Shown: positions 2,617-41,583, counted from the stretch's first letter. The stretch is DNA of 64,000 bases from an uncultured Christensenella sp. (GCA_964620655.1 CAZUJW010000002.1:4144-68143); one strand, 5' to 3'. Notes: generated by a model from the letters alone, not told the origin. Numbers and translations are program-made.

Positions 2617-2640
2617 AGCCTCGAAATTCGGGGCTTTTTC
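2617..2640 (+). terminator. Rho-independent terminator after metQ (also usable from the minus strand for cysK)
   Basis: Stem AGCCTCG/CGGGGCT (7 bp including one G-U), loop AAATT, then T5. An A-run lies upstream. Confidence 0.7.
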
Positions 2641-2686
2641 GTTAAGCCGAATTCGGGTTTTTATTAAATCGAATTCGGGTTTTTTG
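2617..2686. repeat. Three tandem CGAA(A)TTCGGG(G) + T-run units between convergent metQ and cysK
   Basis: The units read cgaaattcggggcttttt, ccgaattcgggttttt and tcgaattcgggttttttg. Each has a palindromic core containing GAATTC followed by a T-run. Confidence 0.6.
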
Positions 2687-3631: not shown

Positions 3632-3663
3632 ATTGCTTATCTCCTTTTACTATATTACTATAT

Positions 3664-3688
3664 TAAAAAACGGCGTTTTTACCGCCGT
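3664..3688 (-). terminator. Rho-independent terminator after the Crp/Fnr gene
   Basis: Stem ACGGCG/CGCCGT with a 7-nt loop. On the minus strand it is followed by T6 (plus-strand A-run 3665-3670). Confidence 0.6.
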
Positions 3689-3711
3689 CTCTTTCGTAGT
3701 TTAATAAAAAA

Positions 3712-4410
3712 CTATTCAGCCGATTCGGCGAGTTTTTTCAAGGCTTCCAAGTCCTTGATTACTATTATCTCTTTACGGAAAGTGAACATATCGTCGTTGT
3801 CTCTCATTCTGCCCATTTCTCTGGACATACTCGGACGGCTTACGTTAAGGTACTTTGCCATTTCGTTACGGTTCATACCGAGACTTACCGTAAGAGAATT
3901 CTGTTCGCAATACTTGTCGTAAATAAGTTTAGCTATCTTATTACGCATACCTTTCGTCGTTATATAATCGTTGTTATCTTCGAGAGCTTCTATTCTTTCG
4001 CTCATCGCGCGCAAAAGATTTTTTATAAGTTTGGACTTGAATTCTCCGTCGCCTACGTCGGAACCGAAAATGCTTTCCGCCGCTATATACAAAACGGTAC
4101 TGTCGAGAGCAGCCACGACGTAATACCCTAAATTCCTGCCGGGGTTATAACAATGCGAGAGTCCGAAGTATTCGCCGTCTATAAGAGAACGTATAACTTC
4201 TCTCTTGCCGCTGTTTTTTGTTGTGAATTCCACCAAGTTGCCTTCGAGAAGTATGCAGATTTCTTCGGGAAAGTCGTTCTCTTTCGCGACGAGCTGTCCG
4301 CGGGAATATTTTACTATACGGGCTTGCAGATAATCGAAAGCTTCGTTGATTTCCGCGTCGGTAAAACCGTCGAAAAGGGAGCATTTTTTGATTTGCTTAA
4401 TTATTCTCAT
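3712..4410 (-). CDS. Crp/Fnr-family transcriptional regulator
   Basis: N-terminal cNMP-binding-like beta-roll (LFDGFTD...GEYFGL) and C-terminal HTH (MNRNEMAKYLNVSRPSMSREM). GAGGA RBS favours the internal ATG at 4410 over the track start at 4434. Confidence 0.75.
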   Translation of the reverse strand: MRIIKQIKKCSLFDGFTDAEINEAFDYLQARIVKYSRGQLVAKENDFPEEICILLEGNLVEFTTKNSGKREVIRSLIDGEYFGLSHCYNPGRNLGYYVVAALDSTVLYIAAESIFGSDVGDGEFKSKLIKNLLRAMSERIEALEDNNDYITTKGMRNKIAKLIYDKYCEQNSLTVSLGMNRNEMAKYLNVSRPSMSREMGRMRDNDDMFTFRKEIIVIKDLEALKKLAESAE

Positions 4411-7471: not shown

Positions 7472-8452
7472 GTGAAAGTAAAAAAACCACGTTTTTCCAA
7501 ACGATATTTTTATATAGCCTTAGTGACGGCAGCGACTATCCCTATCGTAATTTTCCCGGACAGATACCTGCCGTCGGTAAGTTACGGTCTTAATTTATTC
7601 GTCCTTAACGTATTCCCCGCTCTGTTTCCTTTCTTTTTCTTTTCCACTATTCTTTCGCAACTTAACTTCGGTTACGACTTGGGACTCGTGATGAAAAAAC
7701 CGTTAAAAAAACTTTACAACGCGCCGCCCGTAGCGGGTTACGTTTTTATTATGAGCCTTTTATGCGGATACCCTATCGGGGCGAAACTCCTTTCCGACTT
7801 CTATTCCGACGGGCTTATTACGAAAGAAGAAGTAAAATCGGTAGCGAGTTTTACTTCGACTTCGGGTCCGCTTTTTATCGTGGGTACGGTGGGCGTAACC
7901 ATGCTCGGCAACAAAACCGCGGGGTTTATCATTTTAATAAGCCACTATCTCGCCACCGTAATTAACGGTCTTATTTTCCGAAGAAGAAAATCGACGGACA
8001 AAAAATCGACTCTCGCTCCGCCCTTAACAGACGCGGACGGCGTGCTTAAAAAGAGTATGATATCCGCTTTGCTGTCCGTTGCCGTGGTGGGAGGGTTCAT
8101 CTCGGTATTCAATCTCGTCCTCGATATATGCGCCGACGTGAAAATAATAGAGTGCCTTTCCTTTCCGCTAATTAAGTGCGGCGTGGATAAGTCGCTTAGC
8201 GAAGGGATAATCTCGGCTTTTATAGAAATAACGAAAGGCTGTCTTATCGTGTCTAAGTCGGGTTTGCCCGTAAAAATAACCGCTCCCGTATGCGCCCTTT
8301 TAATAACCAACGGCGGACTTAGCGTAACTATGCAAAGTCTTACTTTTTTGGGTAAATGTAAAATATCCCCTGCGTATTACCTTCTGTTTAAGGTGACGCA
8401 AGGGATATTGGCTTTTTTTATATGTTTTTTACTGTCCTTATTGTGGCTTTGA
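7472..8452 (+). CDS. ylbJ: YlbJ-like sporulation integral membrane protein (nucleoside-recognition/gate domain)
   Basis: 326 aa polytopic protein whose N-terminus aligns by eye with Bacillus YlbJ. It neighbours rsmD/coaD as in the Bacillus ylbH-ylbI-ylbJ cluster. GTG start with no clear RBS. Confidence 0.6.
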   Translation: MKVKKPRFSKRYFYIALVTAATIPIVIFPDRYLPSVSYGLNLFVLNVFPALFPFFFFSTILSQLNFGYDLGLVMKKPLKKLYNAPPVAGYVFIMSLLCGYPIGAKLLSDFYSDGLITKEEVKSVASFTSTSGPLFIVGTVGVTMLGNKTAGFIILISHYLATVINGLIFRRRKSTDKKSTLAPPLTDADGVLKKSMISALLSVAVVGGFISVFNLVLDICADVKIIECLSFPLIKCGVDKSLSEGIISAFIEITKGCLIVSKSGLPVKITAPVCALLITNGGLSVTMQSLTFLGKCKISPAYYLLFKVTQGILAFFICFLLSLLWL

Positions 8453-34367: not shown

Positions 34368-36179
34368 TTATGATATGGTAAATATATAATTGACTTTGTC
34401 TTTTACCGCAATGACGTATCCGCTCTGGAACTTGCCGCCGGTAAGGAAAATATCGTAAACGTCGAGTTTTTCATACTCCGCGTTAAGTAAAATATCCCCC
34501 GCGTAATTTTTCAGCCCCAACTTTCCGTACTGCTCGTAGACGTACACGCCCTGACGGACGTTGACGACGTCGGTTATCGCAACGGCGGTTCCGTCCTTAT
34601 AGATTCTGTAACGTGTTTTGCCGTTTATTTTCTTACTGCCCACCGCATAATCGCCGTAGAAAGGAGAAAGTTCGTCGTACTCGAACGGTACTATAATCTT
34701 TCCGTCGGTATCGACTATTCCGTACTTTATTTCCTTGCTCGAATAGTCTATCTTGCCTGCTACCACGCCCACTCCGTTGTAAATATGGGTAGAATAAGTG
34801 TTTTTCCCTTCCTGCAAGGCTATCTGTTCACGTTTTTCAAGGGTTTTCGTAAAATAATGAACGCTCCCGAAATACTGTTCGTACATAGGGTCGCTCGTTT
34901 CCGTCCCCACCCCGTCGACAAACACGCTCGGCATAAGCATATCGCTAATGTTGACGATATTGGCGTTTGCGTCCATTATACAGAACGTAACTTCGCTCTG
35001 CACGCTGCCGCTGTCGGCGTACGGGAAATAGTAATAGTAAACTATGCTGTAACCTTTCTTGACCATTGCCGACACGTCCATATAAGGAAGAACGTAATCG
35101 TAAATACCCGTGTCTTCGTCGAAGGTAGCCAAGTTGTTGAGATAAGAACTTAACTGCGAATAATAGTCGACGTAGTAAGAATTAGCCACGTTGTCGACGA
35201 TAAGCCATTCTCTGTCCGTCGTGGTCTTGTCTTTCGCATTGTACATATCGCAACGGATATTCGCGTAATAAACGGTAGTAGTTCCGCTCGATAAATCGGT
35301 ATCTTCGTATTCTATATTGTATCCGTCGAACTTTTCCGTCGATTTGAGTCGCGCCGTGCGGGTGAACCAACCATTGCCGATATAGTAGATATTCATCTGA
35401 ATATTGTCGGTATATTGCGAGTCGGTATCTTCGGGATATGCGATATAGGTACCCCTTTCGTCGTAAGTAAGATACCCGTCCGACTGAATTTCTTTCACGT
35501 TATAGAAAAAGGCGTGGTCCTTGTTTTCGGCTACGAGATAGTCGTCGTATATCGAAATCGTGTAATTGTAACTGCACCTTATTTTAAACACTTCCAACAT
35601 TTGCCCCGTGGTCTTGTAGTCGTAAAACGTGGTGAACGTAGCCGTGCTGTAAGGATAAGTTTTCGTACCGGGGCAAGCGACGTAATCTCCCGCGAAAAAG
35701 AACTGATTAAACCCCGAATTATAAACCGTCATAAAGTCGGTAAGGTCGCCCTTGTTTTCTCCGCGGAATTTAATAACCCCTATCGTGGGCGCGTAAGAAG
35801 CGGTGCCGTTGCCGTTGTCGACGACGGCGGGTTTAGTCACTATCGCATAATCGCCACTTATCGAGATGACGGAATTGTAAGTAGGCTTTACCAAAACCCC
35901 TTCCGTGGGAGATGCAATGCCGTAAAGATACGAGTACCCAGACGAAGCGTAATCGTTGACGACGGGTTGTATCGTAATAAAAAGGTCGTTTTCTACGTCG
36001 TAGGAATAAACAGACGTGTCGGGCGAGTCCACGATAAGAGTCTGCTCCGCTTTGGTGAACTGCCCCTGCGACGCAAAATTAACGAAATATGCGTTCTCTT
36101 TTTTCTTGCTGCACCCCGTAAGGACAGCGGCAAGCAAACAAAGAAAAACGATAGTAATTAGTAAAAACCGTCTTTTCAT
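34368..36179 (-). CDS. Putative lipoprotein with C-terminal WG/KWG-like beta repeats
   Basis: Lipobox LTGC. C-terminal units such as KYGIVDTDGKIIVPFEYDEL and GKLGLKNYAGDILLNAEYEKL. No SD upstream; see the leaderless promoter. Confidence 0.6.
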   Translation of the reverse strand: MKRRFLLITIVFLCLLAAVLTGCSKKKENAYFVNFASQGQFTKAEQTLIVDSPDTSVYSYDVENDLFITIQPVVNDYASSGYSYLYGIASPTEGVLVKPTYNSVISISGDYAIVTKPAVVDNGNGTASYAPTIGVIKFRGENKGDLTDFMTVYNSGFNQFFFAGDYVACPGTKTYPYSTATFTTFYDYKTTGQMLEVFKIRCSYNYTISIYDDYLVAENKDHAFFYNVKEIQSDGYLTYDERGTYIAYPEDTDSQYTDNIQMNIYYIGNGWFTRTARLKSTEKFDGYNIEYEDTDLSSGTTTVYYANIRCDMYNAKDKTTTDREWLIVDNVANSYYVDYYSQLSSYLNNLATFDEDTGIYDYVLPYMDVSAMVKKGYSIVYYYYFPYADSGSVQSEVTFCIMDANANIVNISDMLMPSVFVDGVGTETSDPMYEQYFGSVHYFTKTLEKREQIALQEGKNTYSTHIYNGVGVVAGKIDYSSKEIKYGIVDTDGKIIVPFEYDELSPFYGDYAVGSKKINGKTRYRIYKDGTAVAITDVVNVRQGVYVYEQYGKLGLKNYAGDILLNAEYEKLDVYDIFLTGGKFQSGYVIAVKDKVNYIFTIS

Positions 36180-36186
36180 ATTTATT

Positions 36187-36215
36187 ATTGTAGCACTTAA
36201 ACGAGTAATTTACAA
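36187..36215 (-). promoter_or_regulatory. Putative promoter giving a leaderless mRNA for the 603-aa lipoprotein gene
   Basis: On the minus strand: TTGTAA (36215-36210), 17-nt spacer, TACAAT (36192-36187), then exactly 7 nt to the ATG (36179). No Shine-Dalgarno. Confidence 0.5.
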
Positions 36216-36240
36216 GAGAAATGCTTTATACAAAGCTCAT

Positions 36241-36394
36241 AGTGAAGTTTAGAAGGTCGTCGAAGTGAAGTTGCCTTACGGCGGTGAAGTTCCGCCATAG
36301 GCGGAGTGAAGTTGCCTTACGGCAGTGAAGTTATCGCTCTGCGATAGTGAAGTTCGGCTAACGCCGAGTGAAGTTTCGAGTAAAACTCGAAGTT
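36241..36394 (+). repeat. Tandem array of 7 x (A/G)GTGAAGTT, six of them followed by a distinct perfect mini-hairpin
   Basis: Motif starts at 36241, 36264, 36283, 36305, 36324, 36346 and 36367, with a truncated AGTT at 36391. The hairpins are GCC-ttac-GGC (twice), CCGCC-ata-GGCGG, ATCGC-tct-GCGAT, CGGC-taac-GCCG and TCGAG-taaaa-CTCGA. Confidence 0.85.
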
Positions 36395-36829
36395 AAGGAT
36401 ACAAAGAATAAGACGGAGTAGGCTAATAATTCTATTCCGTTTTTGTTTATATGATTAGCTTTTTACTTTCTTTTCGGTGTGAAAAGAAAGTAGCAAAGAA
36501 ACACACGAGCCGCAAGTTGCGAAGCTCGGCTCGACCGAGCACGCTTTCATTTTCACAAGGATAAAGTAGATTTATAATTAAGGGGGCATCGCTCCAAGCC
36601 CCCTTAATAAACCCCTTTCCTCATAAAGTTCCCCCTTATCCGAATTTAACAAACTAAATCTTTCTTAATAAACTTATTACTTGAATAGGCTTTATCGACA
36701 TAGGGATAGAATAATCCGTTTGGGTGGGCGGGTGGGAAATAAAAACCCCGATTACAGATAAAAACGGAATAGAACTACCATCCTATCCCGACTTTCTCTT
36801 TTTTCCGCAACTCAAAACCATCGGTTTTG
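36395..36829. other. ORF-free, highly self-complementary core (candidate structured RNA/long leader or MITE-like element); strand unknown
   Basis: No ORF of 60 aa or more in any frame between 36253 and 36912. 14-bp perfect long-range complement (36431-36444 / 36760-36773) with degenerate extension. 12-bp and 11-bp local hairpins. G4 motif. Confidence 0.35.
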
Positions 36830-36857
36830 AACTTCACTGCCGTTAGGCAACTTCACT
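36830..36857 (-). repeat. Two inverted copies of the AGTGAAGTT + GCC-taac-GGC unit
   Basis: The plus strand reads AACTTCACT-GCCgttaGGC-AACTTCACT (36830-36857), preceded by the hairpin AAAACC-atc-GGTTTT (36814-36828). Confidence 0.8.
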
Positions 36858-37050
36858 CAAAGCGGTAAATTCGTTCGGCTTTGCCGAAAAAGGATAGAAA
36901 TATATATATAATTTGTTGCGGCGGCGTGTAAAGGCTTCGAGGTTTGAGATGATTTTTGCCAAATTTCGAGCGAAGTCGTACCGTCGTACGGCGAGTGAGA
37001 ATTTGACAAAACGCACAAAAATTCTAATTATTTTTATCCTTGTTTATATA

Positions 37051-37076
37051 AAAGAAAGCACCCCGTTCGGAGTGCT
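37051..37076 (-). terminator. Rho-independent terminator after the 1326-aa phosphoesterase gene
   Basis: On the minus strand: AGCACTCC-gaac-GGGGTGCT, followed by TTCTTTTAT. Confidence 0.7.
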
Positions 37077-37105
37077 ATCTTTAATCTTGTTTTTTGTGCC
37101 GTAAA

Positions 37106-40100
37106 TTACCAATTTATCGAAGTCGACTTTGCTTTCTTTTTCTTTTTGGTGACTGCTACTATTATTATGACGACTGCCACGCTTATCACAGCTACGCCCG
37201 CTACGATAGCGGCTATAATGATTCCGGAAAGTTCGTTACCGGTTTTCTTAATGACTTTTACTTCGCCGCCGGTAAGATTGCCTTCGCTGTCGTATTCTCT
37301 AAGATACTGATATCCGCAATAATAAAGTTTTTTGCCGTCGAAAGTCAGTTTCCCGAAAGTAGGATCGGAAAGGTGTCCGGATTTGTGAAGAGAAGTTCCC
37401 GTAGCGGTGGGTACGTCGGGATTGTCGACGAAGTTATAGAACTTTTCGCCCATGGTCCCTACGGTAACGTAGAGAGTTCCTTTATTGCTGATTTCATTCT
37501 TGCCGTTGGCGTCGACGGATATTTTCTTTCCGTTGCCGTCGAGATAGAAGGTTTCGTTGTAGACGTGGTCGTGACCCGCTATTACGAGATTAACGCCCTT
37601 TTCGGCAAACAGCGGAGTGAGTTGCGCGCGCATACCTACTACGTCTTTGTCGTAGGAGTGGCTGCCTTCGCTGTAAAGCGACTTGTGCATAACTATTACT
37701 TTCCATTCCTTGTCGGTGTCGGTAAGGTCGTTCACGAGCCATTCGTATTGCTTCGAGCCGAGCTGTTTAATAGTGTTGCCGTCGGCGTCCTTACTGCTTT
37801 CGATATCGTTGGTATTAAGGACGGTGAAATGAACTTTGCCGTAGTCGAAAGAGTAATAGAAGCCGGTGTTGTCTACCTGTGAAGAAGAAATACCGTAGTT
37901 GTAGTGAGTCCACATATAGTTGTACTCGTCGGTGTACGCTCCTTCGCTTGCTCCGCCGTACGCAGCCATATTGCTCGCTTTGTCGACGGTAAAATACTTG
38001 TTGTCGTGGTTGCCGGCGGCTACTACGGTCGCATAACTTGCGTTAAAGGACTGGTCGCTGTCGTAAAGCCATCTGTATTGAGAAAGGTTACGACCGTTGT
38101 CGACGATGTCGCCGGGGTTAATTACGAAGCTTACGCCGTTGGTAAACACTTTTTCCACAGCGTCTTTCTGAATTTTGGCTATTCTTTCGTAAGCGGTCTG
38201 AGTACTGGACTGCAAATCGCTTGCTATCATAACTTCGAACTTTCCGTCTTCGGAAGCGGTAGTAAAGGTATACCAATCGCTCCAATATCCGTTAGTCGCG
38301 CTGCCCGCTCTGTAAGCGTAAGTCGTACCCGCTTTAAGTCCGGTAAGCTCTACCGTGTGACGAGCGAGTTCTACGTAGCCGGACTGGCACCAGATACCCA
38401 AGTCGATAAGGGGTTTTGTGGTGGCGTACACTTTCGTGGTAGCGGTTTGGGTCGTTACTCCGGTGTGGTTTTCCACGTCGGTAGTGTACTGAATGGCTCC
38501 GTCTTTTATACGTCTGTCGGTGTAGTAAGTGAAGTTTCTCGTCGTGGCGACGTCGCTTCCGAAGTTATTGGTGAGCATGGACGGCAATTTTCCGTTTTCG
38601 ATGGTCACGATTTCTTTTCTTTCTACTGCCTGATAGGTTACGCCTTCGCCCTTATATTCGGCGATTTCCATAAGATATCCGTTGCCGTTGTTGTCGTCGA
38701 TTACGTCCTGATGTCCGCCGTCGATACCGAAAGCGTAAAGTATGTTGTAGGCGTATTCGCCGAGTCCCTGCTTAAAGTTGTCGGTGAGGTACTTATCCAC
38801 TATATCGTTTATTATTTCGGGGATGGTAAGATTGGCTAAGTCTATCTGAACGCCGAGATTGTCGATAAGGTCGGTCACCATCGAAATGCCGCCGAGAGTT
38901 TTCGCTATCTTACCGAGGTTAAAGTTATTTAACGTAACGGCTTTACCGTTTTCGTCTTTAACGTCGAAAACCGTGCATACGGCGTCAATAACTCCCTTAA
39001 ATCCTTCGCTTATGTCTTTGGACAGGTCGAGAGTGGTTTCGGAAAGTCCTTTGACAAGGAACATAAGTCCGTCGTTTTCGTCGAGAAGAATATTAAACAG
39101 ATCGGTTACGAACTTGCCCGAGATAAGATTGTTAAACGCATTGACGTAAGAAGGCTTTTCGGTTTTCATTTCGTCATAACTGTTCCAATCTTTGCCGGTG
39201 CTGTGACGCATATAGCAGTCCATAAACACGGTGAATACATCGTCTCCTTCTCCCGAAAGATCGTAATCCAACACTCTGTAAGCGAGTTCTTCCAGATACC
39301 CGAAAGCCTTCATATCGGCAACCTTGAATCTCTCGTTGTCGCCGCCGTAGGTGTAGTCTTTCAATATTTTTGTATTGATTTCGGAGATAAGGTTGTTTGC
39401 AAGTTGTACCACGTCTCCCGCATAGTCGCCGAGATTTATCGTGATACCTACTTTAATAGGAGCTATTCCTTCTATCATTTCGCCGAGTTTTTCGGTAATG
39501 TCCTTTTTAAGGAACTTATTTATATAGTTTTCGACGATATTGTCGTAGACTCTCGTCTGAGCGTAATCGGAATAGTTTTTGATGGTCTTTTTGTTGTCGT
39601 CTATGTATTTTTTGACTTTGTTCTTTGCGACGTATCCGTACTTGTCGCCGGCAAAAACTTTGTCGTACACTTCGGTAGCGTCTACTTCGATATTGGGATA
39701 TGCGCTTAAATAAGTCTGTTCGGCAAACTTACCGTCGAGCGTTCCGCGTTTTATGGTGGTTATTTTACATTGGCTGCCCACGCTTACGTTGGCGGCGCCT
39801 TCCATATCGATAAGCTGATTGCCTTTGTCGGAAATATAGCTTGCCTTATCGTTGGCGTGTTGGTGACCGGTATAAACGTATCTTACGCCGTAGTTTGCGA
39901 TAAAGTCGGCGGTTTCTATCGGATTATAAATAATAAATCCGGTAGTGATTTCTTCTTCCATGCCCCAGTGTTCCACGATAGAGTGGTGAGCGGTCATAGC
40001 TACGGTGATATCGTCGGCGGGTTTGGCAAAATCCTTATTCGCCGTCAACCAGTCCTGAGTGTGCTGTTGCAACTGTCCGCCGAGAACGTGACCTTCGTCC

Positions 40101-41334: not shown

Positions 41335-41340
41335 GAAAGT

Positions 41341-41583
41341 ACCTGAGGTGCTCGTATACTGCAAGCACATTTGGAACCGCAACATTATTATAAGGGATTT
41401 CGGAGTCCGATATACCGGACGTCACGCCCTCGCCGAAAGGTATGGTCAGGGGAAGGCGGAAAGTATGGCAGAAAACCCACCTGCGCAAGCGGGTTTATAT
41501 TACTTGCGGTTACGGCACGCTCGGCAATTTGCTAAAACCGAAAAAAGGTCTACAAAAACACAAATTTTTTGTAGACCTTTTTT
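41341..41583 (+). ncRNA. Candidate ~240-nt small RNA of unknown class
   Basis: Bounded by the orphan promoter and a 14-bp-stem terminator. Contains an internal GNRA-capped hairpin (41479-41494), an 8-bp long-range pair AACCGCAA/TTGCGGTT (41375-41382 / 41504-41511) and other helices. No credible ORF. Confidence 0.35.
41545..41583. terminator. Bidirectional Rho-independent terminator (candidate sRNA / yerC)
   Basis: Stem AAGGTCTACAAAAA/TTTTTGTAGACCTT with a ~7-nt loop. T-runs on both strands. Confidence 0.8.

Follow-up and report, generated by a model that had tools for sequence, protein, structure and literature searches.

Gut-1 (RF01706) is an RNA motif of three hairpins separated by GUGAAAU, found in human-gut metagenomes only and with no function assigned; its discoverers, with a covariation call, judged it to be an RNA (Weinberg et al. 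2010, PMC2864571). It is described as a free-standing sRNA. The REP, BIME and REPIN repeats of Enterobacteria and Pseudomonas are extragenic and sit, in dozens of copies, at the 3' ends of genes. They are mosaics in which small palindromes of either orientation combine with conserved linker motifs into long foldbacks. Cargo MITEs, such as the Correia elements of Neisseria and the pneumococcal BOX and RUP elements, are small non-coding sequences with inverted repeats at their boundaries and are present in multiple copies; BOX (boxA-boxBn-boxC) is modular with a variable number of units, and Correia elements carry promoters and terminators. Eukaryotic Foldback (FB) transposons consist of a variable middle part between long inverted arms, which are themselves composed of short tandem subrepeats. 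Invertons, such as the flg and cwpV switches of Clostridioides difficile, place an inverted repeat around a few hundred base pairs that include a promoter-like site.

We analyzed a 64-kb stretch of DNA from an uncultured Christensenella sp. (hereafter, the window; positions are counted from its first nucleotide) and found, in one intergenic region, an element that combines features of these systems. Like Gut-1, its arms are runs of short free-sequence hairpins joined by a conserved GUGAAAU-type linker; unlike Gut-1 as described, the window motif belongs, as one of two mirrored arms, to a multi-copy DNA element that can hold a 315-bp cargo. The element shares the properties listed above for REP, BIME and REPIN, but its palindromes are free and the linker alone is conserved (375 distinct spacers), whereas the palindrome of REP is conserved in sequence, and its units form direct runs within each arm instead of alternating. 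For its mobilization, a mechanism that reads single-stranded hairpins (HUH/RAYT) would be a plausible analogy. It differs from the cargo MITEs in the build of its arms, which consist of hairpin-unit arrays instead of simple terminal inverted repeats, in having no known target-site duplication or parent IS, and in a centre that ranges from 24 nt to ~700 nt across the family. FB transposons belong to another domain of life, have no sequence relation to the element, and contain subrepeats that are not hairpins. We conclude that the element is a variant of the MITE/BIME kind, giving the orphan Gut-1 motif a genomic identity, and consider it probable that the window holds one copy of a non-autonomous, multi-copy, MITE/BIME-like foldback repeat element of Christensenellales-like gut Clostridia.

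The element spans ~36239-36888 (~620-650 bp) in an intergenic gap flanked by two minus-strand genes, encoding a 1326-aa metallophosphoesterase and a 603-aa WG-repeat lipoprotein (Table 1). A first-pass annotation, made from the sequence alone, had placed it at 36395-36829; these boundaries proved too tight, missing the hairpin-array flanks on both sides. All of the sequence observations in that annotation were nevertheless located in their places, including the absence of any ORF of at least 60 aa within 36253-36912, which an ORF scan bore out. Homologues of the 603-aa protein are found in Clostridia MAGs. A Bacteroidota SusC/SusD context was ruled out by these homologues and by the identity of the two neighboring genes.

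Table 1. Features of the element and of its immediate surroundings in the window
Feature	Position	Strand	Basis and remarks
Promoter TTGTAA-17-TGnTACAAT of the downstream 603-aa gene	36187..36215	-	Between element and ATG; context, outside element
Left arm: seven AGTGAAGTT linkers with a different hairpin of 10-15 nt behind each	36239..36390	+	Repeat search; sub-threshold Rfam Gut-1 match
Junction motif AGTTAAGGATAC, array to centre	36391..36402	+	GTTAAGGATA borders arrays of several linker classes at many Clostridia loci
Left arm hairpin ACGGAGTAGG-N8-TCTATTCCGT plus T5, terminator-like, facing the centre	36403..36444	+	Terminator scan, 36410-36443
Inner cargo module, non-coding, conserved among copies, ~315 bp	36445..36759	+	Alignments of 14 and 11 copies
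Invariant 12-bp hairpin TACTTTCTTTTC-ggtgt-GAAAAGAAAGTA	36464..36492	+	Core 12 bp identical in all aligned copies
Sigma-70-like promoter candidate TTTTCA-17-TATAAT	36550..36578	+	10/12 matches; putative function
Most conserved block: hairpin ATTAAGGGGGC-N10-GCCCCCTTAAT, then C-rich tail AAACCCCTTTCCTCATAA.GTTCCCCC.TATCCGAATTTAA	36577..36650	+	Copy alignments
G-tract GGGTGGGCGGGTGGG, G-quadruplex-type motif	36722..36736	+	Conserved in 13/14 copies
Right arm hairpin, terminator-like, facing the centre; 3' half is the right 14-mer of the first-pass annotation	36760..36804	-	Terminator scan, 36790-36765
Right junction CCGCAACT (reverse complement of AGTTGCGG) plus hairpin caaaaccatcggttttg	36805..36829	-	Recurs elsewhere
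Right arm: two inverted GTGAAGTT units (36830-36858), then degenerate units of the AATTCG linker class (ttcggctttgccgaa)	36830..36888	-	Inverted-repeat search
Locus-specific spacer with AAGGATA...TATCCTT inverted repeat (36887-36916 / 37015-37044)	36889..37056	.	Inverted-repeat search
Intrinsic terminator of the upstream 1326-aa phosphoesterase gene	37057..37076	-	Terminator scan; context, outside element

The seven direct (A)GTGAAGTT linkers of the left arm lie at 36242-36375 with a spacing of 19-23 nt, and the arm includes a 41-nt duplication of two units (36261-36291 / 36302-36332). On the right, the two inverted GTGAAGTT copies are at 36830 and 36849. The element carries 9 of the 14 GTGAAGTT sites in the window, in the whole of which 1.76 would be expected. 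The linker copies yield a 29-nt inverted repeat with 97% complementarity (36304-36332 / 36830-36858), and 36235-36865 folds as single-stranded DNA with z = -15. The junction between array and centre has the consensus AGTTnnGGA / TCCnnAACT.

Inside the junctions, each arm carries an inward-facing hairpin of the form ACGGAATAG-N8-CTATTCCGT followed by a T-tract. The 14-bp perfect long-range helix reported in the first-pass annotation is the common 3' stem half plus T-tract of these two terminator-like arm hairpins: TCTATTCCGTTTTT (36431-36444) is indeed the exact reverse complement of AAAAACGGAATAGA (36760-36773), with a true extent of 15 bp (36430-36444 / 36760-36774), and the left 14-mer forms the 3' half of the left arm hairpin, an arm present in ~30 copies. 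The match is contained in a 49-nt inverted repeat with 76% complementarity (36403-36451 / 36753-36801); the arm mismatches are non-compensatory, as had been noted. The terminator-like arms are consensus matches only, with three found versus 2.0 expected in shuffled sequences. With its 29-nt and 49-nt repeats, the element is small, non-coding and bounded by inverted repeats, in the manner of MITEs.

In an alignment of 14 copies, the cargo holds one to three copies of a 78-nt unit and contains two near-invariant blocks, the region of the 12-bp hairpin and the series ATTAAGGGGGC...CCCCTTTCCTC...CCCCC. Both of the hairpins reported earlier (12 bp, 36464-36492; 11 bp, 36577-36608) are exact, and an extra outer pair of the former varies between U-G and U-A. 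The promoter candidate faces the G-tract end and lies directly upstream of the most conserved block; its -10 element, TATAAT, is kept in 11 of the 14 copies, and the block itself is nearly 100% identical among the window, the copy in Christensenella sp. UBA6420 and the copies in metagenome Ga0256404. The G-tract block was likewise present as reported; it is predicted to pair with the C-tract, a pairing for which there is no covariation. One frame of the conserved block is open, but coding potential was ruled out because copies differ by 1-2 nt indels in the C-tract, indicating that the cargo is non-coding. Counting against the element reading, the very high conservation of the two blocks across species suggests a function that would go beyond selfish spread. 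A phage or plasmid origin of the core was rejected, as it had no match in phage records, plasmid records or IMG/VR.

Three copies (UBA6420 locus L107, 4780-4935; L195; L204) carry, in place of the promoter-like region, an alternative segment of ~190 nt with its own hairpins, which maps to alignment columns 140-320. The cargo itself is thus modular.

To place the element in its genomic setting, we compared orthologous loci. The 1326-aa and 603-aa genes are separated by 926 bp in the window and by 248 bp (L170/L171), 129 bp (L172) and 87 bp (L173) in orthologues, indicating that the additional sequence was gained in a lineage-specific manner and is missing at more distant orthologous loci. At these empty sites protein identity is 58-72%, and breakpoints are not placeable. 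The orthologous locus in Ga0256404 (L235), with flanking genes at 83-89% DNA identity, is filled by an element of a different array subfamily and opposite orientation, suggesting that the intergenic spacer has probably been hit more than once. No filled and empty pair was close enough to reveal a target-site duplication, L235 being the only locus syntenic with the window. Array ends are ragged and differ in length between copies, and a flanking direct repeat is not definable.

L235 also differs in the DNA next to the element. The homologue of the locus-specific spacer is tandemly duplicated there: at 3654-4260, a segment of ~270 bp including the terminator of the upstream gene, homologous to window 36906-37099, is present in tandem duplicate, and a third, partial copy of the 3' end of the upstream gene adjoins the element.

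The window contains a single copy. The arm pattern matched 64 metagenome stretches, including ~30 matches on 18 contigs of Ga0256404, which we assume to derive from a single organism; their cores are 75-88% identical, and each sits between mirrored arrays. The right-junction hairpin caaaaccatcggttttg and the AGTTnnGG junction recur in these copies and in compact elements. BLAST of the core identified one further homologue, in UBA6420; it lies between unrelated genes that converge, and mirrored arrays with linkers of the GTTAATT type stand on both sides of it. In a relative, dozens of diverged copies thus lie at unrelated loci, as expected of a MITE. The first-pass annotation had offered two readings, a large structured RNA and a MITE-like element; the lineage-specific gap, the multi-copy core in a relative, the other genomic contexts and the non-compensatory arm mismatches uphold the latter, and the former gained no support from Rfam or from covariation. 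That the window locus is an element copy with nested remnants is well supported.

The arrays move with the element, since ordered inner hairpins (caaaacc.., cggctNtgccg, accgc..gcggt and cacggcNNNgccgtg) recur beside the arms at different loci, varying mainly in their loops, while the number of outer units is variable. The copies prefer gene 3' ends: of the neighboring genes, 14 of 20 on the G-tract side and 11 of 18 on the other side are directed toward it. At two loci (L181 and L235), arrays begin directly after terminator T-tracts. In this respect the element behaves like REP and BIME, which cluster extragenically at gene 3' ends.

We searched for a protein associated with the element. No recurrent ORF that might mark an autonomous relative or a transposase was found beside or between the arms in ~230 loci, and the ORFs enclosed by arm pairs were ordinary genes. 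Clustering of 1,214 neighboring ORFs returned only ABC ATPases and one gene for a four-helix bundle resembling a 23S-IVS protein, which is confined to one orthologous site in seven loci and is absent elsewhere. This gene (~117 aa, a candidate 23S rRNA intervening-sequence protein; L022, L025, L030, L057, L062, L068 and L084) adjoins GTGAAGTT arrays, and in L062 it lies between them. At several of these loci it is next to a gene for a RumA-like methyltransferase, and probably marks one conserved site across several Clostridia families.

We then examined the relationship to described RNA families. At gathering thresholds, Rfam detected only a 6S RNA (41337-41531) in the window, and a scan of 36000-37300 at relaxed E-values returned nothing beyond sub-threshold Gut-1 and noise. 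Because ROOL, GOLLD, OLE, raiA and HEARO gave no match in this interval even at E <= 10, a known large RNA was rejected. The Gut-1 match (36304-36379) spans the full model, positions 1-77, so that the left arm aligns end to end, and scores 39.1 bits (E = 8e-6) against a gathering score of 50. The arm has seven units with the linker (A)GUGAAGUU, where Gut-1 calls for at least three variable hairpins and a GUGAAAU-type linker. Sister elements do pass the gathering score: the arms of L025 reach 52 and 51 bits. In addition, Gut-1 seed rows, taken with their flanks, consist of an arm, a short centre and an inverted arm, a layout that sits behind a terminator and between convergent genes (PMC2864571 supplement). 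As judged from these alignments, the high-scoring arms and the mirrored seed rows indicate that Gut-1 is one arm of a mirrored element.

Taking a single genome from each species, we searched for three GTGAAGTT sites at intervals of 10-17 nt. The pattern occurs on at least 117 genome contigs, and among the matches listed almost all are gut or rumen Clostridia MAGs. Also among the matches listed, a plus arm is followed by a minus arm in 63 of 97 Clostridia loci and in none of 20 non-Clostridia loci. In compact members of the family, the centre is usually 24-31 nt. Several MAGs carry the family on multiple contigs, and matches are often at contig ends. In the literature, we did not find arrays of this kind described beyond Weinberg 2010.

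Matches to the GTGAAGTT pattern in Bacteroidales, Acidobacteria and giant viruses were plain tandem or coding repeats and were placed outside the family. Those in three Bacteroidales MAGs (L020, 1226-1331; L042, 4526-4609; L069, 6787-6892) are 22-nt tandem repeats of AACTTCACACGTTAAGTTnnnn with near-identical units; they have the 8-mer in common and lack the free-hairpin architecture, and are probably unrelated. A 17-kb viral contig (L136, IMG/VR UViG_3300029305_011416) carries two genuine mirrored elements 4 kb apart in opposite orientations (3845-4055 and 7848-8058), showing that the family occurs in phage genomes too. The GTTAAGGATA junction also borders arrays with other linkers, namely AGTTATAT/ATATAACT, ATATCGC and AAGTGATATT, at L029 (1350-1750), L103 (7160-7400) and L172 (760-910). 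Two linker classes can stand in tandem, which suggests a broad superfamily that would be defined by architecture and not by sequence.

Hairpin and loop statistics bear on whether the units act as DNA or as RNA. Stems can form in 238 of 375 spacers, compared with 45 of 375 when the sequences were shuffled. The loops favored on the AAYTTCRC strand are GNA triloops (54 versus 8) and GNRA tetraloops (26 versus 0); on this strand, ~80% have a C-G closing pair, and G-U pairs amount to 3.6% versus 1.8%. The bias is mirrored: along one strand of a complete element, loops are TTC/TAC in the 5' arm and GAA/GTA in the 3' arm. A single transcript would not have the favored loops in both arms, and a two-fold symmetric process on DNA would fit; the loop bias thus speaks for a mechanism that operates on DNA and has two-fold symmetry. 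Mini-hairpins of the c(GNA)g type are a classic case of extra stability in DNA, and the favored loops may have this role in single-stranded DNA.

Among other explanations, the most serious is a structured non-coding RNA gene, in which the core, with or without Gut-1 arrays, would be transcribed and act as RNA, its repeat-like spread being secondary; in one form of this idea, a C-rich sRNA encoded in multiple copies would mask Shine-Dalgarno sites, and the arrays would be protective or scaffold modules. The block directly 3' of the promoter candidate is almost invariant across species while the arms drift, its tail CCCCUUUCCUC has what we take to be a resemblance to the anti-Shine-Dalgarno sequence, and the inward terminator-like arms would insulate a transcription unit. 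The GNRA loops, and the covariation call with which the discoverers of Gut-1 considered it an RNA (PMC2864571), fit RNA as well as single-stranded DNA. Folding of the core as single-stranded RNA gave z = -6.2, with none of 100 shuffles folding as well, but the value is the same on both strands, the signature of a DNA-level inverted repeat. A conserved RNA fold also gained no covariation support: in an alifold of 11 copies the covariation term was 0.05 and 1 of 57 pairs was compensatory, covariation in the cargo being essentially absent because the copies are too similar. The loop and G-U biases, mirrored between the arms, do not fall on one transcript, compact elements are too small for a promoter, three copies have other sequence in place of the promoter region, and ~30 copies per genome, on the assumption that the Ga0256404 contigs are one organism, would be unusual for an sRNA. 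We consider this explanation unlikely. Far less probable is that the arrays are sites for a protein that binds double-stranded DNA, iteron- or centromere-like, with linkers about two helical turns apart and hairpins that are incidental. Conserved 8-bp linkers, their regular spacing of 19-23 bp and their direct and inverted clusters would agree with such sites, but duplex DNA offers no reason for strand-biased loops or for spacers that are palindromic far above chance despite differing sequences. Moreover, linker sequence differs between subfamilies within one genome, and dozens of copies per genome rule out an origin or centromere.

An inverton, in which a site-specific recombinase would use the perfect 15-bp repeat as its crossover site and flip the promoter-bearing core, is highly improbable. 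The perfect core within a degenerate inverted repeat and the promoter-like site inside it have the expected arrangement, the cargo of L235 is reversed relative to its flanking genes, and this locus first resembled a clean flip at the 15-bp repeat. Arm typing across copies ruled this out: arm type and cargo end are joined identically within each subfamily, and the window and L235 differ in array subfamily and in the orientation of the whole element, so that they look like separate insertions. There was no evidence of flipping between fixed arms, a second assembly of the window locus (L001) having the same orientation; in most copies one arm has decayed, leaving only one intact 12-mer arm, no recombinase gene was seen beside any copy, and the downstream gene has its own conserved promoter. 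That promoter also bears on the proposal, made in the first-pass annotation, that the 603-aa lipoprotein gene has a ~700-nt cis-regulatory 5' leader, transcribed from a minus-strand TTTACA-16-TATATA site (36932-36905) with no intervening terminator. The region is on the same side as the start of this gene, and the sequence of the site, a weak one, was confirmed. The leader role was not: the promoter of the gene lies 8-36 nt upstream of its ATG, downstream of the element, is conserved in L169, L170, L173 and L235, and is kept in orthologues that have the same gene and lack the region. Because of this promoter position and the empty orthologous sites, we dismiss the leader as having next to no chance of being correct. 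Two terminator-like hairpins face that direction of travel, contrary to the proposal, the upstream gene has its own terminator (37076-37057), and elsewhere the element is mostly at gene 3' ends.

The anatomy and a proposed life cycle of this foldback element of the MITE/BIME kind can be summarized as follows. Outermost are two mirror-image arms, with units composed of a conserved linker of 7-9 nt and a short G+C-rich hairpin of free sequence, the same units that Rfam models as Gut-1. Inside these come the AGTTnnGGA / TCCnnAACT junction, then the two inward-facing terminator-like hairpins and, innermost, an insulated, conserved, non-coding cargo of ~315 bp with a promoter-like site, a C-rich block and a G-tract. 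The element would spread as DNA, mobilized in trans by an enzyme that works symmetrically on the two arms and probably recognizes their units as hairpins in single-stranded DNA; in each arm, c(GNA)g / c(GNRA)g loops and a higher share of G-T pairs fall on the strand that runs outward 5'->3'. An RNA of ~230 nt may arise from the cargo, acting as a small transcription unit. After insertion behind terminators, the arrays and inward terminators could act as REP/BIME-like insulators of 3' ends.

A wider proposal, which we put forward tentatively, is that Gut-1-type arrays may be the ends of a previously unrecognized class of bacterial mobile element, possibly with an insulated, conserved small-RNA gene as cargo. 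Such ends would be runs of variable length, each unit a linker plus a single-stranded DNA mini-hairpin of free sequence, and would be read by a single-strand-specific enzyme, new or yet to be assigned; the class would extend widely across the Clostridia of gut and rumen and the phages of these bacteria. If this is true, the cargo RNA would be a genome-wide, multi-copy regulator.

The MITE/BIME-like reading provides a genomic identity for Gut-1, an Rfam family that has been without organism, context or function since 2010: in Christensenellales, Oscillospiraceae and Acutalibacteraceae, gut Clostridia that are abundant yet poorly cultured, Gut-1 runs occur in mirrored pairs and in multiple copies, behaving as repeat-element arms do. 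An architecture of free hairpins joined by conserved linkers, with c(GNA)g loops of the DNA type, is unusual for a bacterial repeat and points to a hairpin-reading mobilization system, and the strongly conserved block of the cargo offers a concrete multi-copy small-RNA candidate. The elements also matter for annotation and assembly, as they cause contig breaks and can be confused with sRNAs, riboswitch-like leaders or CRISPR-like arrays.

Repeats and RNA genes were also noted elsewhere. An intergenic tandem repeat of 22-23 nt, AATTCGGGGTTTTTATTAAACCG, is present in 2.6 copies at window 2625-2685. The 6S (SsrS) RNA lies on the plus strand in the next intergenic region and scores 46.6 bits, against a gathering score of 46.4. 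In L073, a compact hairpin-array element is located ~60 nt upstream of a 6S gene.
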